A DNA stretch of 64,000 nt from NCBI GenBank assembly GCA_018830525.1, contig JAHJSH010000029.1:41526-105525 (forward strand). Reading direction: 5' to 3'. This document shows, one piece after another, positions 16,922 to 41,246 of this stretch; the first letter of the stretch is position 1, and each line of letters begins with the position of its first letter. The notes beneath the pieces were generated by a model, which had not been told where the DNA came from, made no database searches, and was given only the letters and a program-made list of their open reading frames with translations. Made by a program: the position numbers and the translations under genes. This DNA is from Nanobdellota archaeon. Its GTDB lineage: Archaea; Nanobdellota; Nanobdellia; Pacearchaeales; GW2011-AR1.

Positions 16922-17998
16922 ATGAAAAAAGTTAAGGATACTTTGAAAAAAATGGGGGAGAAAAGTAATTCAGGAATTAAAAAAGCTGGTTTAGAATTAG
17001 CTAAGGAAAAAATGACCAAAGAAGGTTATGGGATGGTCGGGGATCATAGTGCCGTAAAAGTATGTCTTTGGACTAAGCATTCAATTCGTGGAGATAGGGG
17101 TTGTTGGAAAGAAAAGTTTTATGGAATTAGCTCTGCCGGGTGTTGTCAAATGACGCCGAGTTTATTTCATTGTGAGAACAAATGTCTTCACTGCTGGAGA
17201 GACTTAACGTATACATTTAATAAAAGTATTGAGAATCCTGATGACCCTAAAAAAATTCTTGATGGAATTGTTGCAGTTCGGAAAGATTTGTTGATGGGAT
17301 TTAAGGGTCGTGAGGGAATTGATATGAAGAAGTTTGAGGAAGCACTTGAGCCAAAGTTGTATACGCTGAGTTTGTCTGGAGAGCCTACGCTTTATCCCCG
17401 GCTTGGCGAGATGTTTGCGGAGATTCGGAAGCGAGGCGCTGTTAGTTTTTTAGTTACAAATGGTTTGAATCCAGAAGTAATTAGAAATCTTTCTACTCTT
17501 CCGACACAGATTACTGTTTCTACAAATGCTCCGAATGAGAAATTGTTTTTGAAGTGGCATCGATCTACGAAGAAAGAGGCTTGGAATGTTTTTAATGAAA
17601 CGCTTGATGTTATTCGAGGATTGGGAAGGGCGCCCTCGGGCATACCCTCTGAGGAGGGCAAAGTTAGGCGGGTGATTAGATTGACTTTGGTTGATAAGGG
17701 AAAAGAAGGGAAATTTAAAGATATGACGAATATGACTGAGGAGAATGTAGGAGAGTATTGCGATTTGATTAGGAAGGCGGAGCCTGATTTTGTTCATGTT
17801 AAGGGATATAAGTCTGTTGGGTATGCTCGTCCTCGGATGGGTTATGATAATCAGCCTTGGTTTGAAGCGGTTAAGGAATATGCTTTGAAGATTGAGAAAA
17901 AGTTAGAGGATTATGAGGTTGCGGCGGAAGATGAGAGATGTTGTGTTGTTATGTTGAAGCGGAAAGGTGGAATAGATTTGAAGATTGATAAGGTTTAG
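16922..17998 (+). CDS. taw1: tRNA 4-demethylwyosine synthase (TYW1/Taw1), radical SAM
   Basis: CENKCLHC cluster motif; SLSGEPTLYP; VKGYKSVGYAR. Confidence 0.8.
   Translation: MKKVKDTLKKMGEKSNSGIKKAGLELAKEKMTKEGYGMVGDHSAVKVCLWTKHSIRGDRGCWKEKFYGISSAGCCQMTPSLFHCENKCLHCWRDLTYTFNKSIENPDDPKKILDGIVAVRKDLLMGFKGREGIDMKKFEEALEPKLYTLSLSGEPTLYPRLGEMFAEIRKRGAVSFLVTNGLNPEVIRNLSTLPTQITVSTNAPNEKLFLKWHRSTKKEAWNVFNETLDVIRGLGRAPSGIPSEEGKVRRVIRLTLVDKGKEGKFKDMTNMTEENVGEYCDLIRKAEPDFVHVKGYKSVGYARPRMGYDNQPWFEAVKEYALKIEKKLEDYEVAAEDERCCVVMLKRKGGIDLKIDKV
17630..17663 (+). repeat. family-3 GC-rich two-hairpin module in-frame in TYW1
   Basis: GCGCCCTCGGGCATACCCTCTGAGGAGGGCAAAG, encoding RAPSGIPSEEGK. Confidence 0.75.
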
Positions 17999-18025
17999 GA
18001 TGGAATGAATTTATTTGGACTTAGC

Positions 18026-18463
18026 CTAAATTCCAATTTTCTCAACATCTTCTGACTTTAGAGGACGACTGCCATGCCCAGAAAAATCAATTAAGTAACA
18101 AATACTCTCAGGGTCATTTTCCATTATAACATTATAAACACTCTCCTTTAATGTCCGATTTCTTATCCATTCATTTATTATGGGAAAGATTTCTTCGGTC
18201 GAATTATTAAAATACCCACAATAAATCATACCTTTCATCTTTTGGTTGAATTCTTCATCGTCTCCCAATATGGGCGTTTCTTTTCCTTCACTATACTTCC
18301 TCCCACTTGCAAGGGTAGCATTTTCTATTCCAATTCTTTTCATTAAGGATTGAAAATTTGCATATTGTTCTTTCAGTTTTCTTTGTAGAGAATTTAATTT
18401 ATCTCTTTCAGATTTTATCTCTTTCATTTTATTTGAATAGAATTGAGAACTAGGGTTTTTCAT
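18026..18463 (-). CDS. hypothetical protein
   Basis: ORF; ATG 18463 chosen, 1 nt after the stop of the upstream gene. Confidence 0.4.
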   Translation of the reverse strand: MKNPSSQFYSNKMKEIKSERDKLNSLQRKLKEQYANFQSLMKRIGIENATLASGRKYSEGKETPILGDDEEFNQKMKGMIYCGYFNNSTEEIFPIINEWIRNRTLKESVYNVIMENDPESICYLIDFSGHGSRPLKSEDVEKIGI

Positions 18464-18464
18464 T

Positions 18465-18818
18465 TTACAAAAATATAACACCGTCCTTAGTAAGCGCGGT
18501 AAACCTGATTCCGACAGGTAGAGAAAGTAATGCAGATTGGAGAGCCATATGTTCCTTTCCATTTCCAGATGCGATAGAGAGTGCGACCTCTAGGTTGTTG
18601 AATTTCCCTGCGAGTTTTTTTTCAAGTTCTTTCTTTAATGGAATAAGAGGTTTATCTGTGTCAAATTCGATAAAGTCGAAAGCTTCTCCTTGGACTGTGA
18701 ATTCTTTTGCGAATGCTGGGCCGAGGACTATTACTTTTTCCCATTCACCTTTTTGGATTAGGCCTGCGACTTGTCCCCAAGTTCCTTTTCCGGTCGATAA
18801 TAATGCTACTAATTCCAT
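18465..18818 (-). CDS. hypothetical small alpha/beta protein
   Basis: ORF preceded by Shine-Dalgarno GGAGGTG about 10 nt upstream of the ATG. Confidence 0.45.
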   Translation of the reverse strand: MELVALLSTGKGTWGQVAGLIQKGEWEKVIVLGPAFAKEFTVQGEAFDFIEFDTDKPLIPLKKELEKKLAGKFNNLEVALSIASGNGKEHMALQSALLSLPVGIRFTALTKDGVIFL

Positions 18819-18937
18819 TGCCTAGGACACCTCCGGTTTCCTAAGGCTTCACCTTCCCGCTGAATTAGTCCACTACGCTCGGTATACATAGTTTAAGAAA
18901 ATATTTTTAGTTTATAATGATTTATGTGATGGTTTTA

Positions 18938-19062
18938 TTAGTCTTATGGCAGAGCCACGCGAGTAATTCGTTCTCGTTGAAACTTGCTGCGAATTTTATG
19001 TGATTTGTTATAAGGTCGCCTTCGGGCATACCCCTGCTGCGAGCAAGGGCAAGTTTTATAAA
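18938..19062 (+). repeat. mosaic element: family-2, then family-3 module, then TATA box, upstream of rpl1
   Basis: TTAGTCTTATGGCAGAGCCACGCGAGTAATTCGTTCTCGTTGAAACTTGCTGCGAATTTTATGTG ... GTCGCCTTCGGGCATACCCCTGCTGCGAGCAAGGGCAAGTTTTATAAA. Confidence 0.8.
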
Positions 19063-19147
19063 CCAAATTTTCACTAGGTTATTACTACTGTTAGTAGAAG
19101 GTTTAATACCGCGCGAGAAATCGTTAATTCTAACAGTCTTAAATATC

Positions 19148-19798
19148 ATGGAAATCAAAGCGGCATTGGCTGAATTAAGAAAGGAAAAGAAACGAAAGTT
19201 TGTACAGACGGTAGACCTAGTTATGAACTTGAAGAATTTTGATGTTCGAAAAGAGGCTCTTAATACTTTTATTACAGTTCCTCATCCAAGTGAGAAGAAA
19301 TTGGCGGCGTTTTTTACTAAGCGAAGTAAGTTAATTGATACGATTACTCCTGAAGATTTTGTTAAGTACAAGGAATCGAAGGATATCAAGAAATTAGCGA
19401 AGAAGTATGATGCGTTTATCGCGGTTGCTCCATTGATGGGAAAAATTGCTACAACATTTGGCCGAGTATTTGGTCCGATGAATCGAATGCCTTCTCCGCA
19501 AGCAGGGATTATCCCGAAGGAAGAGGAAGAGATGATTAATATGATGATTGGAAAAATGAAGAAGTCTATCCGAGTTAAGAATAAAGAGATGGCGATTAAG
19601 TTGCCAGTCGGAAAAGAAAATATGAGCGACGATGATTTGAAGGAGAATATCGAGGCAGTTATTAAAGGTCTTACTAAGATTCTTCCACGAGGGAATGATA
19701 ATGTTAGGGAAGTTTTAATTAAATTCACGATGACCAAACCAATTGCAGTCGTTAGTGCTACCAAGCGTACCCCAACTGAAGTGGGGGCAAAGAAGTAA
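19148..19798 (+). CDS. rpl1: ribosomal protein L1
   Basis: FVQTVDLVMNLKNFD ... FDAFIAVAPLMGKI; rpl1-rpl10-rpl12 order. Confidence 0.9.
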   Translation: MEIKAALAELRKEKKRKFVQTVDLVMNLKNFDVRKEALNTFITVPHPSEKKLAAFFTKRSKLIDTITPEDFVKYKESKDIKKLAKKYDAFIAVAPLMGKIATTFGRVFGPMNRMPSPQAGIIPKEEEEMINMMIGKMKKSIRVKNKEMAIKLPVGKENMSDDDLKENIEAVIKGLTKILPRGNDNVREVLIKFTMTKPIAVVSATKRTPTEVGAKK

Positions 19799-19799
19799 G

Positions 19800-20696
19800 A
19801 TGAAAAATTTAGTTATCGAAAATACTGCTCCGGAACATGATACTACTACCCATGTGAGTGAAGCAAAGAAAGCGAAAGTTAAGGAGTTGGCGGAGTTGAT
19901 GAAAAAGAAAACTGTTATGGTTATTTCAGTTAAGGGTTTGCCGTCGGCGCAGTTTCAGGATATTAAGAAAAAGTTGAGAAGCAAAGCGAAAATTCAGGTA
20001 GTTAAGAAGAGTTTAGTTAAGTTTGCTTTAGATCACTGTGGAATAAAAGAACTACATGGTCTTGTTAAGTATGTTGAGGATTCTACTGCAATGTTATTTT
20101 CTGATAGGGATGCTTTTGAGATTTCGGGGATTTTAGCGGATGAGAAAAGTCCGGCAAAAGCTAAGGCTGGACAGATTGCTCCGAGCGATATTGAAGTTAA
20201 GGCGGGTCCGACAAGTTTGTTACCCGGGCCAGATATTTCTGCATTGAGTGCGGTGGGTTTAATCCCAAAGGTAGAGAATGGTAAAATTGCGGTGATGAAA
20301 GATAAGATTATTGTTAAGAAAGGTCAGGAGATTAGTGATGCTCACGCTTCGATTATGGCAAAGTTAGACATTATTCCTTTCGAGGTTGGAGTTGATCCTG
20401 TTGCTGCTTTTGATGGGGATGAGAAGAAAGTTTATGCAGATATTAAGATTGACAAAGAAGCAATGATTGAAGCGATTATGAGCGATTATGCTCGAGGATT
20501 GGCTTTTGCTGTTGAGATTGCTTATCCTTCGGCGGACACAATTAGTTTTATTTTAGGGAAAGCAGCAATTCAAGGGGACGCAATTGATGCTTTGATCGGA
20601 GAGGAAAAAGTTGAAGAAGTCACAGAGGAAAAAGAAGCCCCTGTAGAAAATACTGATGAAGTAAAGGCTGACGAGGCAGTTACTGAATCACAATAA
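19800..20696 (+). CDS. rpl10: ribosomal protein L10 (P0)
   Basis: VSEAKKAKVKELAELMKK ... GLPSAQFQDIKKKLR; ATG 19800. Confidence 0.85.
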   Translation: MKNLVIENTAPEHDTTTHVSEAKKAKVKELAELMKKKTVMVISVKGLPSAQFQDIKKKLRSKAKIQVVKKSLVKFALDHCGIKELHGLVKYVEDSTAMLFSDRDAFEISGILADEKSPAKAKAGQIAPSDIEVKAGPTSLLPGPDISALSAVGLIPKVENGKIAVMKDKIIVKKGQEISDAHASIMAKLDIIPFEVGVDPVAAFDGDEKKVYADIKIDKEAMIEAIMSDYARGLAFAVEIAYPSADTISFILGKAAIQGDAIDALIGEEKVEEVTEEKEAPVENTDEVKADEAVTESQ

Positions 20697-20748
20697 AAAA
20701 AAGTAAGTCAAAGACTTTCATGTTTTTGATTTGCAAACAAAACAAAAA

Positions 20749-21036: not shown

Positions 21037-21125
21037 ATTTAGATTACTAAATTTGGAAGCAGTGAGGTCTAGTTAGACTTGTTGCTTACGAGGATGAGGC
21101 CTTTGTAGCTTTGTCTTTGGAATGA

Positions 21126-21500
21126 ATGATGGAGGTAGTTGGGGGGAGAAGTTTTGGGAATGTTTTTAAAGTTAATCAGTCTATTTGTTTTATGAAAAGA
21201 AGAAGTCATCGAAGACCTCGGAGGCACAACAATCCCCACCGGAATCATTCGAAACTATTAAAGATTAGTTTTTTCACGAGAAGGCATCCTCTGGCAACAG
21301 GAGTTTTACTTATTATAGCATCTTTACTTACATTCAGATTCTCTCCAGAAATCGGGGAACTAATAGGCTTTGAGGCTGGATTTTGGATATTTCTTCTTGC
21401 ATTAGGATTAGGTATTGCGGGGATATTGGTCTTAGTGGGTTGGTGGAGAAATAATATTTCTAATTTTAATGTCCAAGCTAATCTTAAGTGGAAACATTGA
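21126..21500 (+). CDS. hypothetical membrane protein
   Basis: ORF with basic N-terminus and 2-3 hydrophobic helices; start uncertain. Confidence 0.35.
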   Translation: MMEVVGGRSFGNVFKVNQSICFMKRRSHRRPRRHNNPHRNHSKLLKISFFTRRHPLATGVLLIIASLLTFRFSPEIGELIGFEAGFWIFLLALGLGIAGILVLVGWWRNNISNFNVQANLKWKH

Positions 21501-21744
21501 ATTCTACGCCTCCACCCAGAATCGAACTGGGATTATTCACAATCATGTCTTCGGAATATGATAAATTGTCGAAGACCTAATTGCTCACCCCGAAACAGCC
21601 TGGATTTCAAGAACTTGAAATCCTACGCCCGCACCCAGAATCGAACTGGGATTATTCACAATCATGTCTTCGGAATATGATAAATTGTCGAAGACCTAAT
21701 TGCTCACCCCGAAATAGCCTGACTTTCAAGAACTTGAAATCCTA
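21501..21744 (-). repeat. two 120-bp tandem units, each re-creating the 3' part of the adjacent tRNA-Ser
   Basis: Units 21501-21620 and 21621-21740. Both contain CCCAGAATCGAACTGGGA (T arm, plus strand), a GTCTTCG/CGAAGAC hairpin and GGATTTCAAGAACTTGAAATCC. Confidence 0.9.
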
Positions 21745-21825
21745 CGCCCGCACCCAGAATCGAACTGGGATGCCCCGGAGGGCCTGGATTTCAAGTCCAG
21801 TGCAATACCATTATACGATGCGGGC
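21745..21825 (-). tRNA. tRNA-Ser (anticodon UGA) with long variable arm
   Basis: Acceptor GCCCGCA/TGCGGGC, anticodon arm CTGGA-CTTGAAA-TCCAG, variable arm GCCCTCCGGGGC, T arm CCCAG-TTCGATT-CTGGG. Confidence 0.8.
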
Positions 21826-21932
21826 CTTGCCAATTGCATTCGCAAAGCGAGAGGATTTACTCCGACTATACGATAGAGGCCTAATTGTCTTGGGAGAAGA
21901 AGGTTTTTAAATTTGTTTAACAAACATATTTT

Positions 21933-25596: not shown

Positions 25597-25642
25597 GCTG
25601 CCTTCGGGCATACCTTCCCTCGGAGAAGGTAAGTTTTATAAA
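25597..25642 (+). repeat. family-3 module fused to a TATA box
   Basis: GCTGCCTTCGGGCATACCTTCCCTCGGAGAAGGTAAGTTTTATAAA. Confidence 0.75.
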
Positions 25643-25692
25643 TAGAATTTCCATTTTTTAAGGATGATGAAAAAATTATTGGGGGTAAGAGT

Positions 25693-25753
25693 TTTTAGAT
25701 TATGCAATGACAAAGTCCTTGCGAAATTAAAAACTAAAGTTTTGAATTTATGG
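25693..25753 (+). promoter_or_regulatory. family-1 leader cassette
   Basis: TTTTAGATTATGCAATGACAAAGTCCTTGCGAAATTAAAAACTAAAGTTTTGAATTTATGG, about 58 nt downstream of the TATA at 25634. Confidence 0.7.
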
Positions 25754-26454
25754 TTATGAAAAAAATCTTTGAAAGAATTTTTGATGATGAAGTGCATGCT
25801 AATTTTTTGAAGTTTGGTCGAGGAGAATATAAGAATAAATATTTACTTGAAGGAAAAAAGCAGGTGAAGAAATGGGGGATTAAAGCAGGAGCAGAGTATG
25901 CGAATCTTTTAGTCAGAAAATGTTTAGAAAAAGTTAATGGACCTATTGCTGTCACTGGAGTAATTGTTTCGACCTTGGACTTAAGGGATAAAATTAAATT
26001 TGATATTAAGAAGGTTAGTAATTTTCAGGGGGTTCGGAAGCACGTGATTGACGGTGAGGTTGAGCCGGCCCAGATTTTTGAATTGATGGATAAATATCCT
26101 AAGGCATTTTTTGCATTGACTTTTAAAAGTGATGATTTTGTTTTGAAGATTAAACCTAAGGCTCCGGCAAGCGGGAAACCAGGTAAGGAAAAAGACGAGG
26201 GACCTGTTGTAGATTTTTGTTCTCTGAAAACAGGAGATAGAAGTCTTATTGATTATTTGTTTTTCGGAGTTGGGGAGTTTAGTGAAGTTAAGATTAACCA
26301 TACTATTAATGTTACAGAGATTGTTTATCCGGAGAATATTGAAGAGTTGAAACCGGTAGAAGTTCGTGAGTTGGCAAAGAGAAAAGGTGTTGTTACTCGG
26401 ACTGCTACGGTGGACGGTGTTCAGCAAGTTAGTGAATCTGGGTTTGTTGCTTGA
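25750..26454 (+). CDS. hypothetical protein
   Basis: ORF with its start supplied by the family-1 cassette; no family recognised. Confidence 0.45.
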   Translation: MVMKKIFERIFDDEVHANFLKFGRGEYKNKYLLEGKKQVKKWGIKAGAEYANLLVRKCLEKVNGPIAVTGVIVSTLDLRDKIKFDIKKVSNFQGVRKHVIDGEVEPAQIFELMDKYPKAFFALTFKSDDFVLKIKPKAPASGKPGKEKDEGPVVDFCSLKTGDRSLIDYLFFGVGEFSEVKINHTINVTEIVYPENIEELKPVEVRELAKRKGVVTRTATVDGVQQVSESGFVA

Positions 26455-29015: not shown

Positions 29016-29172
29016 TTTAAATACCTTAATTTCTGATTATTTTTAAGGTTCCATCCAAAACTTAAATGTTTGGATGATGAGAATTTTGTGATTGGTTGGT
29101 CACGATAAAGCGCTTGAGTGCTATCAAGTTAATTATCCGATAGTTGAAACTATCAGGGACAAGAATATAAAA
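29016..29172 (+). promoter_or_regulatory. TATA box (TTTAAATA) plus structured leader of about 130 nt for the rpl3 cluster
   Basis: Hairpins CATCCAAA/TTTGGATG (29052-29076) and GATAGTT/AACTATC (29139-29154). Confidence 0.5.
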
Positions 29173-31160: not shown

Positions 31161-31505
31161 ATGATTTCTGCTACTTCATTATGTTGTGGTCGTGTAATCT
31201 CCGACAGGGTAGAAAAGGGAATAGAAAGAATGATTGGGGATAATTTTGATAATATGGAGAAGGTAGTAGCAACACCTTACCCAAACAAAGAAGTTAAAGT
31301 TTTATCATTAGAACAACTACCTAAAAGCTATGGGTTTTATGATGATGAAAAAATTAGGGTAGATAGAGATATGAATAAAAGATATGGTGGGAAGATTAGA
31401 GTAGATTTTATTGAAAATTCAAAGCGTACAGGATTTATAAAGTTTAAAGAAGGTGGAGAAGGTTATGTTTATTTTGATAGGTTGTTAACGGAGGCAAAAT
31501 TGTAG
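31161..31505 (+). CDS. orphan ORF between rpl23 and rpl2
   Basis: Complete ORF; 2-nt and 1-nt gaps to the flanking r-protein genes; no family recognised. Confidence 0.5.
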   Translation: MISATSLCCGRVISDRVEKGIERMIGDNFDNMEKVVATPYPNKEVKVLSLEQLPKSYGFYDDEKIRVDRDMNKRYGGKIRVDFIENSKRTGFIKFKEGGEGYVYFDRLLTEAKL

Positions 31506-32672: not shown

Positions 32673-33278
32673 ATGGTAGCACCAATAAGTGTACCCGTTG
32701 AATCGGGCAAAGAAATAAAGAAAATTGAAATCAAGAAAGTGGAAACTAAGCCAGAAACTAAGACGGCACCTGAAGGTGTACCTTCTGAAGAAGGCAAAGA
32801 AAAGAAAGTGGAAAAAGATACTAAGAAAGTTGAGAAGAAAGCTAAGGAAGTTCCTAAGAAAGAGCTAGCTGTTGCTAATGGATATTCTTTGAGGATTTCT
32901 CCAAAGCAATCTGTTTATGTTTGTAAGGTTATTCGGGGAAAGAGTCCCGAGGCTGCGATTGAGAGATTACAAGCAGTTATTGATGAGCGAAGACCGGTTC
33001 CAATGGCCGGTTTGGAAGTTGGACATAAGAAAGGGAAAGGTTTGGCTGGTGGAAAGTTTCCGAAGAATGCATGTCAAGGAATTATGGAAATTGTAAAGCA
33101 GGCTAGCGCTAATGCAGTTGTTGCAGGAATTGAGAACCCAGTTATCACAATCGCGAAATCTGACCGAGCATCAGCACCATATCGAAGAGCTGGTCGAAAG
33201 GCGAAGAGAACACATATGCATATTGAAGTTAGAGATAAAACTAAATTGTTAAAGAAGAAAAAGGAGAACCGAAGATAA
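32673..33278 (+). CDS. rpl22: ribosomal protein L22 with about 60-aa N-terminal extension
   Basis: YSLRISPKQSVYVCKVIRGK; the extension contains two family-3 modules. Confidence 0.88.
   Translation: MVAPISVPVESGKEIKKIEIKKVETKPETKTAPEGVPSEEGKEKKVEKDTKKVEKKAKEVPKKELAVANGYSLRISPKQSVYVCKVIRGKSPEAAIERLQAVIDERRPVPMAGLEVGHKKGKGLAGGKFPKNACQGIMEIVKQASANAVVAGIENPVITIAKSDRASAPYRRAGRKAKRTHMHIEVRDKTKLLKKKKENRR
32679..32712 (+). repeat. family-3 module in the rpl22 5' extension
   Basis: GCACCAATAAGTGTACCCGTTGAATCGGGCAAAG, encoding APISVPVESGK. Confidence 0.7.
32766..32799 (+). repeat. family-3 module in the rpl22 5' extension
   Basis: GCACCTGAAGGTGTACCTTCTGAAGAAGGCAAAG, encoding APEGVPSEEGK. Confidence 0.75.
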
Positions 33279-33372
33279 AATGATACATAAAATATTATGC
33301 AATGACAAAGTCCTTGCGGATCACCCGGTAGGTGATCTGGTGATCAAAAAACTTGGAGGTTTTTGCTAATGG
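33276..33372 (+). promoter_or_regulatory. long family-1 cassette with embedded family-4 element, filling the rpl22-rps3 spacer
   Basis: 97 bp identical, bar one mismatch that I found, to 39668-39764; ends in SD GGAGGT and ATG 33369. Confidence 0.8.
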
Positions 33373-34163
33373 AAGCAAGAAAATTTGTTGGCGTGAGAAA
33401 GGATGAATATAACATCAAGCAATTTGTAAAGCGAATGTTCGGAAAAGGGAAAGTTTCAAAGGTTCGAATTGAGTATACCCCTGTTGGAGAAAAGATTATT
33501 ATTTCTACACATAAACCGGGTTGGATTATTGGAAAGAAAGGGGAAAAAATTAATGAGTTGACGGAAGTTTTGAAGAAGCGATTCAAGATGGAGAATCCCC
33601 ATGTAGACATTGATGAGATTTTGCATCCAGAGTTTGATGCTCAGTTAGTCGCAGATGATATTGCATTGACTCTTGAGAGATTTGGAGCTATGAAATATAA
33701 GGCTTCGGCATATAGGGCTCTTGGTAGGATTAAGAATGGTGGGGCTCTTGGAGCAGAACTAAGAGTATCTGGTAAACTTCCAAGCGATCGGGCTCGAAGT
33801 TGGAGATTTGCATTTGGATATTTGAAGAAAACTGGAGACGCTGCAAAGTTAGTTGACCGAGCAGAATCAGTGGCACATACTAAACAAGGTGTTGTTGGAA
33901 TTAAGGTTGCGATTTTATCTCCAGGAGTTAAGATGCCTGATCAGATTATTATTGATGAAGAATTTATGAACGAAGTAAAAAAGAATTCGACTTTTGACGC
34001 CCAAAATGGGCATGACCCTGCTGGTCCCGAAGTTGAAGAAACTATACGCGCTTCGCAAGTACCCTCTTCGAGGGCAAAAATTAAAAAGAAAAGGAAGTCG
34101 ACACGTAATAGTGTACCCTCTAAGAAGGATTCTGACAAACCGGCTTCATCGGGCAAGAAATAA
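33369..34163 (+). CDS. rps3: ribosomal protein S3
   Basis: KH domain IISTHKPGWIIGKKGEKINEL; ATG 33369 preceded by GGAGGT. Confidence 0.9.
   Translation: MEARKFVGVRKDEYNIKQFVKRMFGKGKVSKVRIEYTPVGEKIIISTHKPGWIIGKKGEKINELTEVLKKRFKMENPHVDIDEILHPEFDAQLVADDIALTLERFGAMKYKASAYRALGRIKNGGALGAELRVSGKLPSDRARSWRFAFGYLKKTGDAAKLVDRAESVAHTKQGVVGIKVAILSPGVKMPDQIIIDEEFMNEVKKNSTFDAQNGHDPAGPEVEETIRASQVPSSRAKIKKKRKSTRNSVPSKKDSDKPASSGKK
34048..34080 (+). repeat. family-3 module in the rps3 C-terminal tail
   Basis: GCGCTTCGCAAGTACCCTCTTCGAGGGCAAAAA. Confidence 0.65.
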
Positions 34164-34164: not shown

Positions 34165-34365
34165 ATGGCATCTGAAAAAAAAATACTAACAGAGAAAGAA
34201 TTGAACAAGAAAATTAAGGATTTGAAGATTGAAATATTAAAAAATCCGACGAAAAAGAAAAGCATTAAAAAGGAAATTGCGCGATTGTTAACTGTGGGAA
34301 ATCAAACTAAACTCGAAGGGGTCGCACCCAAGGGTGTACCCCAAAAGACTGGAGGTAGGAAATAA
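34165..34365 (+). CDS. rpl29: ribosomal protein L29
   Basis: KELNKKIKDLKIEILK; position after rps3. Confidence 0.85.
   Translation: MASEKKILTEKELNKKIKDLKIEILKNPTKKKSIKKEIARLLTVGNQTKLEGVAPKGVPQKTGGRK
34324..34356 (+). repeat. family-3-like module at the rpl29 3' end
   Basis: GCACCCAAGGGTGTACCCCAAAAGACTGGAGGT, encoding APKGVPQKTGG; its GGAGGT serves as the SD for the next gene. Confidence 0.55.
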
Positions 34366-34666: not shown

Positions 34667-34667
34667 A

Positions 34668-35114
34668 ATGGTAGAAAAGAAAAAAACGACGAAAAAGAAA
34701 GTAATGAAGATAGTTGCACCCAAAGGTGTACACCAAGGAGGTGCGAGAACCTCTTCGAGGCCTCCGGCCCAGAAGGTATCCGCTAACGCGGACAAGGTCG
34801 GCAAAACTGCGGGCTGTAAAGATAGACTTTGTCCTGAACATGGAGATAGAAAATTGAAGATGCGAGGACGAACCTTTGAGGGAATTGTTATTAAGAAACT
34901 TCCCGGAAGAGTTACAATTCAATTTGAGAGAATGCTTAAGGTTCCAAAATATGAAAGATATGAAAAGCGAAAGACAAAGATCCATGCGAGATTGCCGGAT
35001 TGTATGAATGATGACGTTGCTGAAGGGGATTTGATTCAGATTGCGGAGACTCGTCCGATTTCTAAGATGATTCATTTTGTTGTAAGTAAAGTTGTGCGGA
35101 GGAAAACAGAATGA
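34668..35114 (+). CDS. rps17: ribosomal protein S17 with N-terminal extension
   Basis: GRTFEGIVIKKLPGRVTIQFER ... IHARLP. Confidence 0.88.
   Translation: MVEKKKTTKKKVMKIVAPKGVHQGGARTSSRPPAQKVSANADKVGKTAGCKDRLCPEHGDRKLKMRGRTFEGIVIKKLPGRVTIQFERMLKVPKYERYEKRKTKIHARLPDCMNDDVAEGDLIQIAETRPISKMIHFVVSKVVRRKTE
34716..34807 (+). repeat. long (92-nt) family-3 variant inside the rps17 5' region
   Basis: GCACCCAAAGGTGTACACCAAGGAGGTGCGAGAACCTCTTCGAGGCCTCCGGCCCAG...GGTCGGCAAAAC; paralogous copy at 40356. Confidence 0.85.
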
Positions 35115-35512: not shown

Positions 35513-35513
35513 C

Positions 35514-35978
35514 ATGAAATCAGAATTTAGTAAAACATGGAATTCGAGTAAGCAGCCAAGAAAGCAAGTTAAATTCAGAGCAAATGCTCCAAATCATATT
35601 AAGAGAACTTTTATGGGTTCAACTTTGGATAAAGCACTTAGAACAAAATATGGAATGAGAAATATTGAAGTTCGAAAAGGCGACGAAGTGAAGATTATGC
35701 GAGGAAAGTTCAGAGGTAAGCAAGGGAAGGTTGGAACTGTTGATGTTAAACACACTCGAGTTCAGATTGATGGAGTTCAGAGAGCTAAGAAAGGCGGCGA
35801 GAAAGTTGAGACTTGGTTTCACCCATCAAATGTAAAGATTATTGTTTTGAATAGTGACGATAGGAAGAGAATGAAAAAGGGTAAGATTGAAGAAAAAGTT
35901 CCGGCTAAAGAAATTAAACCAGCGACGAAGAAAGTTGTGGAGAAGACACCTAGTGTACCTTTGGAGGGCAAAAAATAA
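35514..35978 (+). CDS. rpl24: ribosomal protein L24 with C-terminal extension
   Basis: KOW motif MRGKFRGKQGKVGTVD. Confidence 0.88.
   Translation: MKSEFSKTWNSSKQPRKQVKFRANAPNHIKRTFMGSTLDKALRTKYGMRNIEVRKGDEVKIMRGKFRGKQGKVGTVDVKHTRVQIDGVQRAKKGGEKVETWFHPSNVKIIVLNSDDRKRMKKGKIEEKVPAKEIKPATKKVVEKTPSVPLEGKK
35945..35975 (+). repeat. family-3 module at the rpl24 stop / rps4e start junction
   Basis: GACACCTAGTGTACCTTTGGAGGGCAAAAAA followed by TAATG. Confidence 0.7.
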
Positions 35979-36778
35979 TGGCACATATTAAGAAAACACA
36001 AATGCCCAAGTCGTGGCCAGTCCCGAGAAAAGGTAGGGGAAAGAGATTTGTAGCTGTGCCAAGCCATGCGACTAGTAAGGGAATTTCTTTATTGTTCTTG
36101 CTTCGAGATGTTTTAAAAATTGTTAATACTCGGAAGGAAGCAAGGCATATGACACTTAATGGGATGGTTAAAATTAATAATGTTACTCGGAAAGATGAGA
36201 ATTTTCCAGTTCAAGTTTTTGATACAGTTAACTTGTCCTCAAAGGATGACTCCTCAAAGGATGACTCCTCAAAGGATGACTCCTCAAAGGATGACTCCTC
36301 AAAGGATGACTCCTCAAAGGATGACTCCTCAAAGGATGACTCTGGTGAGCCTTCTGGTGAGCCTTCTGGTGAGCCCGAAAAGACTAAGTTGAATTATAAG
36401 TTGGAGATTATTAATAAGAAGTTTAGTTTGGTGGAGATTTCGGCTAAGGAAGCAGAGACTAAGATTGTTAAGATTGTTGGAAAGAGAACAATTGGAAAAG
36501 ATAAGATTCAGATGAACCTTGATGATGGACAGAATGTTTTGACTAAAGAGAAATTCTCCATCGGGGATTCTGTTGTTTTGAACACTAAGGAGACTAAGAT
36601 TGTTAAGATTCTTCCCTTGAAGGAAGGGGCTAAGATTGAAGTTGTTCTTGGAAAGCATGCAGGTGAGAAGGGCGAACTTGTTGGATTCGATGAATTGGTT
36701 CGGGGAAGAAATTATAAAATTAAATTAGAAGATAGGACTGTGAGTTTGCCTTATAAGACTATCTTGGTGATTGCATAA
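35978..36778 (+). CDS. rps4e: ribosomal protein S4e with internal low-complexity repeat insert
   Basis: MAHIKKTQMPKSWPVPRKGRGKRFVAVPSH. Confidence 0.9.
   Translation: MAHIKKTQMPKSWPVPRKGRGKRFVAVPSHATSKGISLLFLLRDVLKIVNTRKEARHMTLNGMVKINNVTRKDENFPVQVFDTVNLSSKDDSSKDDSSKDDSSKDDSSKDDSSKDDSSKDDSGEPSGEPSGEPEKTKLNYKLEIINKKFSLVEISAKEAETKIVKIVGKRTIGKDKIQMNLDDGQNVLTKEKFSIGDSVVLNTKETKIVKILPLKEGAKIEVVLGKHAGEKGELVGFDELVRGRNYKIKLEDRTVSLPYKTILVIA
36236..36376 (+). repeat. perfect 7 x 15 bp plus 3 x 12 bp tandem repeats in-frame in rps4e
   Basis: TCCTCAAAGGATGAC x7 (SSKDD) then TCTGGTGAGCCT x3 (SGEP). Confidence 0.95.
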
Positions 36779-36779
36779 A

Positions 36780-37325: not shown

Positions 37326-37376
37326 AATGAAAGTGAATTATAAATTCTCATTCATAAAAATTGGGAGAGCATTTTT

Positions 37377-37607
37377 ATGACAGCGAGCGATTGGAGAAAA
37401 ATAACTAGACAGCTTCGAGGAAAGCCTGCTGTTTTGAAGAAGTTTTTGAAACATAATAAGCCCAAGGCTCGAGCTTTTGGAGTTGCTGCTCAGAAATGTG
37501 AAGTTTGTGGAAGACACGGCGCACATATTTCATCTTATAATCTAAATTTGTGTCGACACTGTTTCAGAGAGTTGGCAGTTGAACTCGGGTTCAAGAAATA
37601 TTCATAA
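37377..37607 (+). CDS. rps14: ribosomal protein S14 (zinc type) with N-terminal extension
   Basis: CEVCGRHGAHISSYNLNLCRHCFRELAVELGFKKYS. Confidence 0.88.
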   Translation: MTASDWRKITRQLRGKPAVLKKFLKHNKPKARAFGVAAQKCEVCGRHGAHISSYNLNLCRHCFRELAVELGFKKYS

Positions 37608-37608
37608 A

Positions 37609-37845
37609 ATGGTAGAAAATAAACAATATACAATAATCGGGCAAGTATACGGGGATATAGGAAGTGCATATAAAAGCTTGGCATTGGGACATATTAATTT
37701 AGCTAATAATTCGGAGAGACAGGCTAGAAGACTATTTGATGAATCATCTCAGGAGGCTGAGATTAATCTGGCAATTAGAGAAGATGTAGAAAAATCCTTA
37801 GGCACACTTATTCAGCATATAAATAAAGTGGAGGAAGCACAATGA
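37609..37845 (+). CDS. orphan ORF between rps14 and rps8
   Basis: ATG 1 nt after the rps14 stop; its stop overlaps the rps8 start (ATGA); no family recognised. Confidence 0.5.
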   Translation: MVENKQYTIIGQVYGDIGSAYKSLALGHINLANNSERQARRLFDESSQEAEINLAIREDVEKSLGTLIQHINKVEEAQ

Positions 37846-38219
37846 GTCAAGATATAGTATCCGATGGATTAAACCAAATAATGAATGCGAAGAGAATTGA
37901 GAAGCGAGAACTTACAATTAGGAAGTACTCAAAAGTTCTACTTGGATTATTCAAAATGATGAAGGAGAAAGGCAACATCGATTATGAAGTTAATGAAGAA
38001 GCTAAAACAGTTAGTGTTAAGATTATCAAGTTGAACGAATGTAAAGCGATCAAGCCGAGGTATTACGTTGGTGTTGATGATATCGATAAATATTTGAGAA
38101 GGTTCTTACCTTCGAGAAATTTCGGGAGTTTAGTAATCTCTACAAATCAAGGATTGTTAAATCATAAGGAAGCAGTTAAGAATGAAATTGGAGGAAGCGT
38201 AATTGCTTATTTCTATTAA
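37842..38219 (+). CDS. rps8: ribosomal protein S8
   Basis: DIVSDGLNQIMNAKRIEKRE. Confidence 0.9.
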   Translation: MSQDIVSDGLNQIMNAKRIEKRELTIRKYSKVLLGLFKMMKEKGNIDYEVNEEAKTVSVKIIKLNECKAIKPRYYVGVDDIDKYLRRFLPSRNFGSLVISTNQGLLNHKEAVKNEIGGSVIAYFY

Positions 38220-38281
38220 GATGAACAAAGTAACATCAAAGATGTTTCATAAATTCATTTGTTCAATGGAGGATATGAAAA

Positions 38282-38824
38282 ATGAATAAGGATTTGGAAA
38301 GAATTATTGAGATCCCGGAAGGAGTTGAAGTTGTTGTTAGTAAAAACAAGGTAACTGTTAAGGGAAATGGAAAGGAACTTGTTCGAGAATTTGATAAGGG
38401 GAAAGTTTCTATGGCCGTAGCTGATGGAAAGTTTGTTTTAACCGCTAAGGGTGCCACTCGAAGAGAATCTAAGATGATTGGAACAATCTGGGCACATTTG
38501 AAGAATATGATTAAAGGTGTTGGAAAAGAATTTGTTTACGAACTTGAAATTGCTAATGTCCATTTCCCTATGAATGTTAAGGCTGGGGGAGATAAGGTTA
38601 CTATCAAATCATTTTTGGGAGAAACAACATTGAGAGAAGCTAGAATTATGCCTAATGCGAAAGTAGAGGTTAAGGGAAGTCAGATTACAGTTACATCTCA
38701 CGACATCGAGGCTGCTGGACAAACTGCGGCTAACTTGGAGAAGGCTACACGATTAACTGGAAGAGACCGGAGAATTTTTCAGGATGGAATTTTCATAACT
38801 AAAAAACCGTACAGAGTAATTTAA
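38282..38824 (+). CDS. rpl6: ribosomal protein L6
   Basis: IPEGVEVVVSKNKVTVKGNGKEL; SD GGAGG upstream. Confidence 0.9.
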   Translation: MNKDLERIIEIPEGVEVVVSKNKVTVKGNGKELVREFDKGKVSMAVADGKFVLTAKGATRRESKMIGTIWAHLKNMIKGVGKEFVYELEIANVHFPMNVKAGGDKVTIKSFLGETTLREARIMPNAKVEVKGSQITVTSHDIEAAGQTAANLEKATRLTGRDRRIFQDGIFITKKPYRVI

Positions 38825-38825
38825 T

Positions 38826-39269
38826 ATGGTAGAAAAAGAAAAACCTACAGCGAGAAAGAAACCAGGATTTTTGAGAAAGGACTGGCACAAACATATCAAG
38901 TTAGGTAAGACTGTGAAGAAGGCTCGGAAGTGGAGAGCTGCTAAAGGGCGACAGAATAAGATTCGATTGGGAGTAAAGGGACATCAGGCAAGGCCAAAAG
39001 TTGGATGGTGTGCTGATGCGAGGACTAAAGGTTTCGTTGGAGGAATCGAGGCTGTTAGAGTAGAAAATATAAAAGAAATGGAAGCTGTGAAGGCCCTCAA
39101 CAGGCATGACTCTGGTGAGCCTAAAGGAATAGGAGTTATTATCGGATCGGTTGGGAAGAAAAAGAAAACGGAATTAATTGCAAAAGCGAAAGAAATGAAA
39201 ATTACAATTTTAAACAAATACAAAAAGGAGGAGAAGGTTGCACCGAGTGTACCCTTGGAGGGAAAATGA
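38826..39269 (+). CDS. rpl32e: ribosomal protein L32e
   Basis: PGFLRKDWHKHIKLG ... WRAAKGRQNK. Confidence 0.88.
   Translation: MVEKEKPTARKKPGFLRKDWHKHIKLGKTVKKARKWRAAKGRQNKIRLGVKGHQARPKVGWCADARTKGFVGGIEAVRVENIKEMEAVKALNRHDSGEPKGIGVIIGSVGKKKKTELIAKAKEMKITILNKYKKEEKVAPSVPLEGK
39240..39266 (+). repeat. family-3 module at the rpl32e end / rpl19e start junction
   Basis: GCACCGAGTGTACCCTTGGAGGGAAAA followed by ATGA. Confidence 0.7.
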
Positions 39270-39670
39270 ATTTAGCAAAGAAGAAAGAATTGGCGGCGAA
39301 AGTTTTGAAAGTTGGAAAGAACAGAATCGTTTTTGTAGAAGGACATTTGTTAGAAATTAAGGAAGCTATCACAAGATTGGATATCAAGGATCTTCATAAG
39401 GCAGGTGCAATTCAGATTAAGGAAGTTGGTGGACGAAAGAAAATTGTTAGAAGGAAACACCGAAGGAGAACCGGTAAGATTAAGAAAAAAGTTAATACAC
39501 GAAAGGCGGACTATGTGATTATTACTCGGAAATTGAGAGCGTTTGTTCGAGGGCTTGTTAGAACTGGTGCAATTGACAAAGAACAGAATCGGGACATCCG
39601 AAAAGAGATTCGGGCTAGAGGATTCAAAAGTAAAAGACATTTAAAGGAGAGTTTGGAGGAAACTAAGTAA
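39266..39670 (+). CDS. rpl19e: ribosomal protein L19e
   Basis: MNLAKKKELAAKVLKVGKNRI. Confidence 0.9.
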   Translation: MNLAKKKELAAKVLKVGKNRIVFVEGHLLEIKEAITRLDIKDLHKAGAIQIKEVGGRKKIVRRKHRRRTGKIKKKVNTRKADYVIITRKLRAFVRGLVRTGAIDKEQNRDIRKEIRARGFKSKRHLKESLEETK

Positions 39671-39764
39671 AATGATACATAAAATATTATGCAATGACAA
39701 AGTCCTTGCGGATCACCCAGTAGGTGATCTGGTGATCAAAAAACTTGGAGGTTTTTGCTAATGG
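39668..39764 (+). promoter_or_regulatory. long family-1 cassette with embedded family-4 element, filling the rpl19e-rpl18 spacer
   Basis: Near-identical to 33276-33372. Confidence 0.8.
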
Positions 39765-40273
39765 GACTAAGAACAATGAAACGAAGGAGAAAGGAAAACA
39801 AGACAGACTACAAATTGAGAACTGGTTTGTTGAAGTCAGGAATTCCGAGGATAGTTGTACGAAGGACGAATAAGTATTTTATTCTTCAAGCTGTTGAAAG
39901 TCATGAGGCTCAAGATAAAGTTATCGCAACAATTACTTCTAAAGAGCTTTTGTCCCCAAGGGATGGCCCTGATGGCCCCAATAATGGGTGGGATGCTAAG
40001 AAGAGTGGAAGTTTGAAATCTATCCCGGCAGGATATTTAACCGGGTTGTTATTCGCTAAGAAATTAAAATCTGGGAAATATATTGTGGATCTTGGAATGG
40101 CTCGAACAGAATCTGGTTCAAGAGTATTCGCAGTTGTTAAAGGTTTGATTGATGGTGGCTTGGACATTTCGGCTAATGAGGAAGTTTTCCCTTCGGAAGA
40201 GAGATTGAGTGGAGAACATTTAAAAGAAGATGTTAAGGCAATGATTGCAAAAGTTAAGGGAGGCTTAAAATAA
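39761..40273 (+). CDS. rpl18: ribosomal protein L18
   Basis: RRRKENKTDYKLR ... IVVRRTNKYFILQAV. Confidence 0.9.
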   Translation: MGLRTMKRRRKENKTDYKLRTGLLKSGIPRIVVRRTNKYFILQAVESHEAQDKVIATITSKELLSPRDGPDGPNNGWDAKKSGSLKSIPAGYLTGLLFAKKLKSGKYIVDLGMARTESGSRVFAVVKGLIDGGLDISANEEVFPSEERLSGEHLKEDVKAMIAKVKGGLK

Positions 40274-40274
40274 G

Positions 40275-41246
40275 ATGGCAGTTACTGGGGAGGATAAGAA
40301 AGAGAAGCAGGCAGAGGAATTGGCTGAGAAAGAAATGGAGAAAGATTTAGACGCAGCACCCAAGGATGTACACCAAGGAGGTGCGAGAACCTCTTCGAAG
40401 CCTCCGGCCCAGATGGCATCCACTGACGCGGACAAGGTCGGCAAAGAACTATTGAAAGAAATGGAGAAGGTAGTTGAAGCTGAAGAGAAAAAGAAAGATA
40501 AAAAAATATCTAAGGAATTTGATGCTAAGGCTAAGACTGATGAAGGTCGAGGAGAATGGAAGAGAGAATCTCGGGAAGACAGATTTGCTAGGGAGGCTCA
40601 GGAGAAATTGGATAATTGGGTACCGAGAACTCAGTTAGGAAAAGATGTTCGAGCTGGGAAGGTTAAGAGTATTGAGGAAGTTTTTGATGCAGGACAAAAA
40701 ATATTGGAGCCAGAAATTGTTGACCTTTTGGTTAAGGGTTTGCATACAGATACTTTATTTATTGGACAAGCAAAAGGAAAGTTTGGTGGGGGAAAACGAA
40801 GAGCATTCAGACAAACTCAAAAGAAAACTAAGGAAGGAAATGTTTTGACTTTTGGAGTTATGGCTGTTGTCGGAGATGGACACGGACATGTTGGTATTGG
40901 ATATGGGCGGGCTGCTGAAACCTTGCCGGCGAAAGAGAAAGCAGTTAGAAAAGCTAAGTTAAATATTGTTAAGATTCCTCGGGGATGTGCAAGTTATGAT
41001 TGTTCATGTGATGAGGACCATAGTATTCCTATCGCGGTTGAGGGAAAATGCTCTTCAGTAATAGTTAAGTTAATGCCGGCACCCCAGGGAACTGGTTTAG
41101 TTATTGGAAATGAAATGAAGAAGATTTTAAGGGCAGTTGGAATTAAAGACGTTTATGGAAAATGTTCTGGGAAAGTTAAAACTACATTTAATACTGCTAA
41201 GGCTTGTATGGCTGCTTTGAATAAATTAGGAGAGATTCAATATTAA
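40275..41246 (+). CDS. rps5: ribosomal protein S5 with about 100-aa N-terminal extension
   Basis: WVPRTQLGKDVRAGKV ... VVGDGHGHVGIGYGRA. Confidence 0.9.
   Translation: MAVTGEDKKEKQAEELAEKEMEKDLDAAPKDVHQGGARTSSKPPAQMASTDADKVGKELLKEMEKVVEAEEKKKDKKISKEFDAKAKTDEGRGEWKRESREDRFAREAQEKLDNWVPRTQLGKDVRAGKVKSIEEVFDAGQKILEPEIVDLLVKGLHTDTLFIGQAKGKFGGGKRRAFRQTQKKTKEGNVLTFGVMAVVGDGHGHVGIGYGRAAETLPAKEKAVRKAKLNIVKIPRGCASYDCSCDEDHSIPIAVEGKCSSVIVKLMPAPQGTGLVIGNEMKKILRAVGIKDVYGKCSGKVKTTFNTAKACMAALNKLGEIQY
40356..40446 (+). repeat. long family-3 variant inside the rps5 5' extension
   Basis: GCACCCAAGGATGTACACCAAGGAGGTGCGAGAACCTCTTCGAAGCCTCCGGCCCAG...GGTCGGCAAAG; about 90 percent identical by eye to 34716-34807. 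Confidence 0.85.

Follow-up and report, generated by a model that had tools for sequence, protein, structure and literature searches.

Short palindromic elements that lie inside protein-coding genes have been described in bacteria and in mitochondria. As presented in PMC10969869, Rickettsia palindromic elements (RPEs; Ogata et al., 2000) are ~100-150 bp long, sit in frame and encode family-specific peptides. In yeast mitochondria, GC clusters are inserted in frame in VAR1, the gene for mitochondrial uS3, and alter the size of its product (PMC4464245). A literature search of incomplete coverage turned up RPEs, archaeal MITEs (miniature transposable elements with inverted repeats) and mitochondrial elements, and found no comparable element for DPANN archaea or for archaeal ribosomal-protein genes. 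Here we analyze 64,000 nucleotides (nt) of a Nanobdellota archaeon (assembly GCA_018830525.1, contig JAHJSH010000029.1, forward-strand positions 41,526 to 105,525; this whole stretch, numbered from its first letter, is called the window), which carry a GC-rich two-hairpin module in ribosomal-protein genes and a few other places. An earlier note on this DNA had listed 12 copies and likened them to RPEs. We consider it likely that the modules form a family of very short, structure-defined, non-autonomous repeats that are inserted without target duplication and tolerated in frame or close to promoters.

The window has a GC content of ~36% and contains a complete archaeal ribosomal-protein operon of the S10-spc type (29-42 kb) and an rpl1-rpl10-rpl12 operon, together with genes for TYW1, Dph2, an intein-containing FtsZ and SecY, and a glycosylation cluster. 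Its closest genomes are metagenome-assembled genomes (MAGs) of Pacearchaeota/Woesearchaeota-type DPANN archaea, with the top rpl14 match 95% identical, and by these matches the host is an archaeon of this type. The window sequence is identical to contig k141_674780 of ENA assembly ERZ27247117. Only one other assembly, L099 (1.5 kb), has an identical rpl14; it is 100% identical to the window and therefore uninformative on strain-level polymorphism.

Architecture and covariation of the module

Each module consists of hairpin 1, a (G/A)TACC linker, hairpin 2 and a GGCAAAR tail. Single units are 27-36 nt long and composites 51-90 nt, and their GC content is 45-68%, compared to 36% for the genome. 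We built a covariance model from an alignment of 19 copies from the window and its relatives and scanned the window with filters off. At E <= 2e-3 the model recovered 10 window copies, which lie without exception on the + strand within 17.6-42.1 kb, and it gave no further window match above 16 bits. Since all ten copies were in the training alignment, they match by construction, and the independent evidence comes from pattern counts and from matches elsewhere.

The pattern counts confirmed an excess over shuffled sequence. In the window, GTGTACC occurs seven times (1.3 expected), as does TACCN{4,20}GGCAAA (1.7 expected; all on the + strand). A strict scan for the order hairpin, TACC, hairpin, tail gave 12 matches, compared to 0-1 in each of 10 dinucleotide shuffles (mean ~0.5); of these 12, four belong to a separate intergenic repeat family (D4), of which they are minus-strand copies, and are not the module.

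To measure covariation, we used 39 distinct copies from 21 sources. Paired cells made up 80.1% of the alignment versus 72.3% in column shuffles, and the covariation score was 0.326 versus 0.174, a value that none of 500 shuffles reached; controls in which the pairing partner was slid scored at most 0.124. The covariation that the earlier note had proposed to test is supported. Both helices covary, with hairpin 2 93% paired and three of its positions covarying, while the count for hairpin 1 comes out too low, owing to a one-column misalignment of copies with 3-nt loops. By eye, hairpin 1 stems include CACC/GGTG, CATC/GATG, CAC/GTG, ACAC/GTGT, GCC/GGC, CTT/AAG, GCT/AGC, CCCT/AGGG and CTCTG/CAGAG, and the change from CACC/GGTG to CATC/GATG is found inside a single genome (L024). 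The sequence also bears out a compensatory synonymous pair in hairpin 2, CCTTC..GAAGG and CCCTC..GAGGG, both of which encode PSEEG.

Folding of single sequences mostly gave the two-hairpin structure, but folding energy by itself failed to separate the modules from GC-matched shuffles (z-scores of -2.7 to +0.9). Since these z-scores are modest, the structural argument rests on covariation and not on energy. A scan of the whole window against Rfam at gathering thresholds detected two tRNAs only, and the module is therefore not a known RNA family.

The model also allowed us to revise the list of 12 copies. Eight are canonical (17630, 19016, 25598, 32679, 32766, 34047, 35943 and 39237). Those at 34716 and 40356 are real but are 90-nt composites rather than simple modules, and the copy at 34324, in the rpl29 tail, keeps hairpin 1 and TACC but has a degenerate hairpin 2 (10.7 bits). 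The copy listed at 5849 in dph2 is a different, weaker element that lies on the + strand, antisense to dph2. Two copies recovered by the model, at 19755 in the rpl1 tail and 42046 in the rpl15 tail, had been missed.

Insertion polymorphism and copies at non-orthologous sites

To obtain an unbiased catalogue of insertions and deletions, we compared the window with L100, a syntenic relative with 83% nucleotide identity over 20 kb. Nine modules are present only in the window, two clearly only in L100 (with a possible third), and four are shared; most mid-sized indels in the operon are modules. Among the window-only inserts, rps3 has three (30, 27 and 51 nt), rpl32e two (30 nt inside the gene, and the tail), and rps17, rpl24, rpl18 and rps5 one each (81, 24, 27 and 75 nt, respectively). 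The modules found only in L100 lie at the N termini of rpl5 (30 nt) and rpl32e (54 nt). Junctions are clean and the inserts are not copies of their own flanks. At 11 junctions where empty and filled sites could be compared (L100, L003 and L014), there was no target-site duplication, no terminal inverted repeat and no common target motif.

All intragenic inserts relative to L100 have lengths that are multiples of 3 nt, from 24 to 81, and the frame used contains no stop codons. The lengths indicate that the inserts are translated rather than spliced out, a conclusion we draw from sequence comparison. They bear on the idea that the modules are tiny introns, removed by the bulge-helix-bulge (BHB) tRNA-splicing endonuclease or a similar enzyme and never translated. 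One point favors this idea, namely the unusual introns and split genes for which DPANN archaea are known. Lengths in multiples of three are expected only if the inserts are translated, the stop-free frame argues the same way, and the fold is two independent hairpins and not a bulge-helix-bulge. On the grounds of insert length and the lack of a bulge-helix-bulge we reject this explanation, and of all those we weighed we hold it the least probable.

The wider set of relatives gave the same picture. In 16 related operons, the module peptides are missing at the rpl22, rps3, rpl24, rpl15 and rps5 sites and sporadic at the rps17, rpl29 and rpl32e sites. Proteins 88-93% identical to the uS3 of the window lack all three rps3 inserts, and the rps17 module is missing from uS17 proteins that fall in one 90%-identity cluster with that of the window and are near-identical to it apart from the insert. 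In some lineages we found degenerate orthologous remnants, as expected for decaying insertions. Against solved structures, TYW1 and Dph2 have alignment gaps of ~12 and ~10 residues at their modules. Thus, the boundaries of indels among orthologues coincide with module boundaries, whether the comparison is with structures, L100 or other relatives. The possibility that orthologues would carry the same peptides without the nucleotide motif did not materialize, as close orthologues have no such peptides at all. The statement that the peptides lie in extensions lacking from homologues holds in part: the modules are new, but the K/E-rich terminal extensions themselves are common to relatives.

We examined each site in turn; all copies described here are on the + strand. 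The TYW1 module (17630..17663; APSGIPSEEGK) scores 38.6 bits in the covariance model and lies exactly at the gap against structures 2yx0 and 6djt. Two modules occupy the N-terminal region of rpl22. The first, at the N terminus (32679..32712, 34.5 bits; M-V-APISVPVESGK), is absent from 16 relatives, and L100 has a diverged orthologous copy with a compensated hairpin 2. The second, in the extension (32766..32799, 35.9 bits; APEGVPSEEGK), is shared with L100 only, and its minimum free energy structure is the two-hairpin fold. The first of the three rps3 inserts (33998..34027; DAQNGHDPAG) is a 30-nt GC-rich two-hairpin sequence of the related "GGGCATGAC" type with a folding z-score of -2.07, opposite an exact 30-nt gap in L100, L003 and L014. 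It is followed by the rps3 tail module (34046..34079, 27.3 bits; RASQVPSSRAK), opposite a 27-nt gap in L100, and, in the C-terminal tail, by a longer variant (RNSVPSKKDSDKPASSGKK; 34103..34157), opposite a 51-nt gap in L100. The peptide type of this variant recurs at the rps17 N terminus in other species (P0052 and P0014).

The degenerate module of the rpl29 tail (APKGVPQKTGGRK; 34324..34359), which retains an intact hairpin 1 and GTGTACC, is lacking in most relatives. Inside rpl32e is a 30-nt insert of the "GGCATGAC" type (39093..39122). A 27-nt run of GC-rich mini-hairpins in rpl18 (39953..39979; SPRDGPDGP), opposite an exact 27-nt gap in L100, appears related but is not of the TACC type. 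The rpl15 C-terminal tail holds a module read in another frame (42046..42079, 27.6 bits; QGTSGEAK) that is kept in L100, with all three differences between the two copies in loops. Lastly, the dph2 sequence (5859..5889; hairpin-CACGAGAA-hairpin) adds ~10 amino acids relative to solved Dph2 structures and is possibly related to a 30-nt element described below that nests in other modules. We call the relationship possible because the link consists of shared architecture and a 16-nt similarity, and the 9-mer GAGAACCTC also occurs at unrelated sites.

Copying at the DNA level, which the earlier note had proposed, is supported by identical modules at non-orthologous sites in other species and by nested insertion. 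A 31-nt sequence of the window rps3 tail, GCTTCGCAAGTACCCTCTTCGAGGGCAAAAA, recurs inside rpl32e of L001, and at this rpl32e site the window holds a different module, the 30-nt insert at 39093. The 22-mer CACCKAGTGTACCYTTGRAGGG, found in the rpl24 and rpl32e tails of the window, is matched exactly at 15 places on 13 metagenome contigs. Hosts recognized by eye or from their similarity to window genes include rpl32e, uS4, uS17 and P0; four further hosts, assigned by eye without a family search, are a MutS-like ATPase, a nucleotidyltransferase, a ferredoxin-like protein and small secreted proteins. The 22-mer is also present in one short open reading frame (ORF) of L093. Many species carry a 60-nt module (APKGVPPAQ.AS..ADKVGK) at the uS17 N terminus; another species has it in the uL24 tail, and the window has it in uS5.

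Two composite units illustrate the nesting. The unit at the rps17 N terminus (34716..34805, repeat D10) is 90 nt long and consists of the 60-nt module, interrupted at GTA^CC by a nested two-hairpin element of 30 nt (34731-34760); L100 lacks the unit, and relatives have the 60-nt form. A second 90-nt unit, in the rps5 N-terminal extension (40356..40445), is 92% identical to it and is not found in relatives, and the ends of the duplicate are exactly the module ends. In uS17 of L094, tandem modules occur with and without the nested element, and in L095 the nested element, with compensatory stem changes, lies in a short host module of 33 nt.

Module-rich operons are also found elsewhere, with four modules in 5.7 kb of L091 and five in 15 kb of L095. 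When we searched 1.35 Mb from 80 species with the covariance model, we obtained 10 solid matches and one weak minus-strand match, all in six close species; the more distant species among the 80 gave no solid match. The family is therefore restricted to one lineage, and distant Pacearchaeota are unusable for studying it.

These copies also bear on whether any mobility is needed. Hairpins could arise de novo, by template switching, quasi-palindrome mutation or slippage in K/E-rich tails, and converge on similar sequences. This would fit the abundance of other short and tandem repeats in the genome, the 15-nt repeats of rps4e and a 59-nt array among them, and insertions without target-site duplications. 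It does not fit the identical 22-31-nt sequences in unrelated genes and species, the non-palindromic TACC linker and GGCAAA tail common to all copies, the precise ends of the duplicated 90-nt unit, or inserts that are not derived from their flanks. We regard de novo origin as highly unlikely, slightly less so than the intron explanation.

Reading frame, orientation and gene context

We asked whether the family is defined by nucleotides or by amino acids. Most genic copies read the linker as GTA-CCN (V-P), and the V-P...G-K frame is used in 13 of the 15 genic covariance-model matches and in all 15 metagenome matches. Other frames are used in rpl1, rpl15, rpl3 and rpl24 of L095, and L089, for a total of three, and four copies are intergenic. 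The TA of the linker and the GGC of the tail are fixed at synonymous positions despite the AT-rich genome (GTA or ATA always, GGC mostly); stem positions, by contrast, covary synonymously. Nor is the spacing between TACC and GGCAAA divisible by 3 in every copy. The three frames, the intergenic copies and the spacing indicate that the family is defined by nucleotides and not by a peptide.

The alternative is that a peptide motif, (A/T)P-x-(V/I)P-x(2-5)-GK, has a function at the protein level and that the hairpins are by-products of descent and codon choice. The predominance of one frame is what this predicts, and the bias is not due to stop avoidance: in subfamily iii, the group that includes the 22-mer, (G/A)CACC-K-AGTGTACC-YTTGRAGGG, all six frames are free of stops. 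Counting against it are the two other frames in use, the four intergenic copies, the fixed synonymous positions and synonymous stem covariation, and the variable spacing, which in the peptide appears as PxxP or PxxxP. A protein-level function is very unlikely, though not quite as unlikely as de novo origin, and we reject a peptide-only explanation in view of the off-frame and intergenic copies and the fixed synonymous sites. As the frames in use encode small, hydrophilic, Pro/Gly-rich peptides, selection for harmless peptides explains part of the bias.

Public gene starts differ on identical DNA for the two window genes with composite units: rps17 (34668) is annotated as 148 or 136 amino acids and rps5 (40275) as 323 or 261. 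The disagreement between NCBI and ENA is apparently due to the inserted modules.

Copies are concentrated in translation genes. Ribosomal-protein ORFs, 23% of the window, hold seven of the 10 model copies (P ~2e-3) and 14 of the 18 inserts of any module type (P ~2e-6). Among all model matches, 38 of 42 are inside ORFs, and copies cluster at the extreme protein termini. There was no copy in 21 kb of + strand non-translation genes (43-64 kb) or in the two 10-kb flanks of the window.

In several copies at or near a gene junction, hairpin 2 has its 3′ arm (GGAGGG or GGGGG) 3-10 nt upstream of the following ATG, a position where other operon genes have GGAGG. The junctions are rpl24/rps4e, rpl32e/rpl19e, rpl1/rpl10, rps17/rpl14 of L024, and uS4 and its next gene. 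In the window, the rpl24 C-terminal module (35943..35973, 24.1 bits; TPSVPLEGKK-stop), opposite a 24-nt gap in L100, places GGAGGG 10 nt upstream of the rps4e ATG. The rpl32e C-terminal module (39237..39267, 25.1 bits; APSVPLEGK-stop), with orthologous copies in L086, L087 and L091, places it 3 nt upstream of the rpl19e ATG, with overlapping stop and start codons (ATGA). The module of the rpl1 C-terminal tail (19755..19792, 30.9 bits; rpl1 ORF 19148-19798), read in another frame (RTPTEVGAK), has its GGGGG arm before the rpl10 ATG, and GGAGG precedes the SUI1 start after the degenerate rpl29 module. This Shine-Dalgarno pairing arrangement was not seen for internal, N-terminal or promoter copies.

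Three of the intergenic copies are fused to a TATA box, TTTTATAAA. As the earlier note had reported, both of the intergenic copies it listed adjoin the box (AAGTTTTATAAA). One (19016..19054, 29 bits) lies directly 5′ of it (GGGCAAG, then TTTTATAAA), upstream of the rpl1 operon, and has no in-frame upstream start codon. The other (25598..25634, 29.1 bits; GGTAAG, then TTTTATAAA) is likewise directly 5′ of the box, upstream of ORF 25750, and has an orthologous copy in L100. The third is in L001, upstream of rpl3; since the orthologous rpl3 promoter of the window has no module, the module is dispensable there. A separate hairpin in the rpl3 leader (CATCCAAAACTTAAATGTTTGGATG) is conserved upstream of the gene in the window (29045-29091) and L001 (~4100-4160) and could be an operon leader or autoregulatory structure.

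These positions raise the main rival to the insertion reading, which does not exclude it: the module may be a functional RNA cis-element of highly expressed translation genes, with duplication secondary. It could sequester Shine-Dalgarno sequences for translational coupling, stabilize or process mRNA, or bind a regulator. The sense orientation of all genic copies agrees with this, as do their enrichment in ribosomal-protein genes, their absence from ~40 kb of genes without a translation role (43-64 kb and flanks), most of which lie on the same strand, and the GGAGGG or GGGGG arms before start codons. Conservation is consistent as well. The rpl32e-tail module is 90-93% identical among orthologues, far above adjacent synonymous sites (~45%), and the substitutions in rpl15 relative to L100 are all in loops. 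Set against this, most ribosomal-protein genes have no module and it is missing from these junctions in close relatives. Internal or N-terminal copies far from start codons are numerous (TYW1, rps3, the second rpl22 copy and the MutS-like host), those upstream of TATA boxes are probably outside the mRNA, some are decayed remnants, and the hairpin energies are small, with modest z-scores. We think an RNA cis-element with secondary duplication improbable.

Under the reading we prefer, modules would have inserted in copy-and-paste fashion over evolutionary time at new sites of an AT-rich DPANN genome, with stem sequences varying among subfamilies while pairing was retained. Insertions would persist only where harmless, that is, at extreme N and C termini, in surface loops and in promoter-proximal intergenic DNA; in proteins, tolerance would demand a length divisible by three and a small, hydrophilic, Pro/Gly-rich peptide. 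Some copies were probably recruited for use. The GGAGGG in the 3′ arm of hairpin 2 may, at several junctions, serve as the Shine-Dalgarno-like sequence of the next gene, and the three copies that adjoin a TATA box are placed where a recognition element for transcription factor B (TFB) would lie. Spread would require a trans-acting activity, such as an enzyme that recognizes hairpins in single-stranded DNA, or templated repair or recombination. An HUH/IS200-type single-strand mechanism would agree with the recognition of hairpins, the one-strand orientation and the lack of target duplication, and so would templated repair. As regards a comparison with IS200/IS605 elements, which insert 3′ of a fixed tetra- or pentanucleotide without target duplication and in one orientation relative to replication, all copies are on the + strand, GC skew is positive throughout the copy-bearing region, and primary modules have no 5′ target in common.

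Several observations weigh against insertion followed by tolerance. Pfam scans of the main window ORFs detected no gene for a transposase, HUH enzyme, reverse transcriptase or integrase, and these enzyme types are also absent from the precomputed annotations of genes in the two 10-kb flanks. The 11 junctions lack target-site duplications, terminal inverted repeats and a common target motif. Every genic copy found is in sense orientation, which simple tolerance of random insertion does not predict; the complete lack of antisense copies is not explained by tolerance alone. In subfamily iii, one of the six stop-free frames is used at 12 of 12 distinct sites. Copies are enriched more than 10-fold in ribosomal-protein genes. 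Finally, the orthologous rpl32e-tail modules of L086, L087 and L091 are 90-93% identical, compared to 67-71% for the adjacent conserved coding block and 40-57% for its synonymous sites, which points either to constraint on the nucleotide sequence or to homogenization or re-insertion. The sense-only bias, the ribosomal-protein enrichment and the rpl32e-tail conservation could reflect a function at the RNA level or a mechanism linked to transcription.

A bolder proposal is that an archaeal insertion system not recognized before and specific for the sense (non-template) strand, which would recognize single-stranded DNA hairpins or use an RNA template, may favor highly transcribed genes, ribosomal-protein operons among them, with copies then recruited as portable regulatory cassettes. 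The recruited cassettes would be the Shine-Dalgarno-sequestering coupling hairpins at cistron junctions and the promoter-adjacent modules. We regard this as doubtful, if less so than the RNA cis-element; if true, a mobile element actively reshapes the sequence and expression of the DPANN ribosome.

Other repeats and genes of the window

The window holds further dispersed repeats. A 133-nt intergenic cassette is present at 33249-33381, 39641-39773 and 47169-47301, with the first two copies 88% identical. It precedes rps3 and rpl18 and ends ...GGTGATCTGGTGATCAAAAAACTTGGAGGTTTTTGCTA-ATG, so that two different genes have one and the same repeat as their Shine-Dalgarno region and start context; 24 nt of the cassette are missing in L100. 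A 71-nt hairpin cassette (GCAATGACAAAGTCCTTGC) ends at the ATG of four unrelated genes (4618-4688, 15449-15519, 25684-25754 and 51186-51256). In L100 it lies upstream of rpl5 (13171-13229), where the window has none, and it appears to be a mobile 5′-leader or promoter cassette. A third repeat of 35-71 nt (TAGTCTTAYGGCRGAGCCRYGCG...GAATTTTATGTG; 12352-12386, 14685-14755, 18932-19002 and 47317-47350) occurs upstream of aIF5A, the rpl1 operon and a glycosyltransferase gene, with one copy just 5′ of the module at 19016.

Between the adenylate kinase and FKBP genes is a 59-nt unit in ~5 tandem repeats (13709-14062), and single related copies lie between other minus-strand genes (8875-8921 and 10010-10056). 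On the minus (sense) strand the unit reads hairpin-TACC-hairpin-AAAA followed by a run of T and scores 11-14 bits with the module model; it may be a distant, intergenic, terminator-like relative of the module. In rps4e (eS4), a perfect 15-nt tandem repeat is present seven times (36221-36357), encoding (SSKDD)n followed by (GEPS)3, and all 114 nt of this region are missing in L100. The GEPS part contains a CTCTGGTGAG hairpin that is also found in the rpl32e insert and the 59-nt repeat.

FtsZ (10058-12289, minus strand) is split by an intein with LAGLIDADG homing-endonuclease domains. Small ORFs of 114, 88, 77 and 263 amino acids (31161-31505, 37579-37845 and 42175-43203) sit inside the ribosomal-protein operon between rpl23 and rpl2, rps14 and rps8, and rpl15 and secY. 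Those starting at 31161, 37579, 42175 and 42412 had no Pfam matches, and syntenic L100 has none of them (gaps of 347 nt, 225 nt and ~1 kb). On the minus strand, uL11 (8142-8828) has a ~90-amino-acid Ala/Glu-rich C-terminal extension made of CTGCTGC-type repeats, and Spt5 (8922-9629) has an 86-amino-acid N-terminal extension; neither contains a TACC module. Three tandem units of 119 nt (21493-21850) each carry the 3′ part of tRNA-Ser(TGA), which is complete only in the last, and resemble scars from repeated integration at a tRNA gene.

Comparison with known elements

Ribosomal proteins are highly conserved and form the backbone of phylogenies of uncultivated archaea, and here a 30-nt repeat lands in them preferentially and alters protein length between relatives with uS3 cores 88-93% identical. 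For phylogenomics, such inserts give homoplasious indels and identical peptides in non-orthologous proteins, and they apparently misled gene callers. The sense-only orientation, the ribosomal-protein enrichment and the fusions to promoters and Shine-Dalgarno positions make one ask whether mobile hairpins act as portable expression signals in a minimal symbiont genome.

Coupling hairpins of ribosomal-protein operons, which sequester a Shine-Dalgarno sequence such as GGAGG 3-12 nt upstream of the next start, resemble the copies in which hairpin 2 pairs its CCCTY arm with GGAGGG before the next start, inside the last codons of the upstream gene. This applies to a subset of copies only, as the element also lies far from start codons and in promoter DNA that is probably not transcribed. 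MITEs are, like the modules, non-autonomous, multicopy and sometimes intragenic. However, they have terminal inverted repeats, target-site duplications and lengths of at least 50-500 bp; the modules have none of these, and their two ends (GCACC... and ...GGCAAA) do not form an inverted repeat.

Repetitive extragenic palindromes (REPs) and bacterial interspersed mosaic elements (BIMEs), which are mobilized by RAYT (IS200/IS605-like HUH) transposases, share with the modules a hairpin structure of 20-40 nt, an adjacent short conserved non-palindromic motif and many copies. The lack of target-site duplication and the strand-biased orientation are also features of REPs, BIMEs and palindrome-associated transposable elements. 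REPs, however, are extragenic, whereas the modules are mostly intragenic. In addition, no RAYT or TnpA gene was seen in the ~84 kb examined, and no fixed target tetranucleotide was found; the one target that recurs is the GTA^C of the nested element, used in three loci (the window, L094 and L095) that amount to two or three independent contexts at most.

The GC clusters and double-hairpin elements (DHEs) of fungi resemble the modules as short GC-rich hairpins in an AT-rich compact genome that conserve structure more than sequence and show insertion polymorphism between relatives, and the archaeal uS3 with three inserts parallels VAR1. Unlike the modules, which are on an archaeal chromosome, those elements are organellar, mostly intergenic and found in both orientations to genes, and homology to the modules is not expected. 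Some GC clusters have been reported with target duplications, and none was seen at module junctions.

RPEs agree in behavior: both are repeated palindromic DNA in frame in unrelated protein-coding genes, with a family peptide and a consistent frame, and both are patchy among close relatives, with decaying copies and no identified transposase. The modules are shorter, at 27-36 nt with composites of up to 90 nt, compared to the ~100-150 bp given there for RPEs. They have no known sequence relationship to the ten RPE families (no homology search with RPE models was made), occur in an archaeon rather than in the alpha-proteobacterium Rickettsia, have two hairpins with covarying stems and a short conserved linker and tail, and are concentrated in ribosomal-protein genes, with some fused to promoters or Shine-Dalgarno positions. 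The RPE-like label therefore holds for behavior, that is, in-frame, stop-free insertion with shared peptides, and not for membership in the RPE family, given size and host. The module family is not a member of the RPEs, GC clusters/DHEs, MITEs or classical REPs, but resembles them in behavior, and it extends selfish DNA inside coding genes, as known from RPEs and GC clusters, to Archaea with an unusually small unit.

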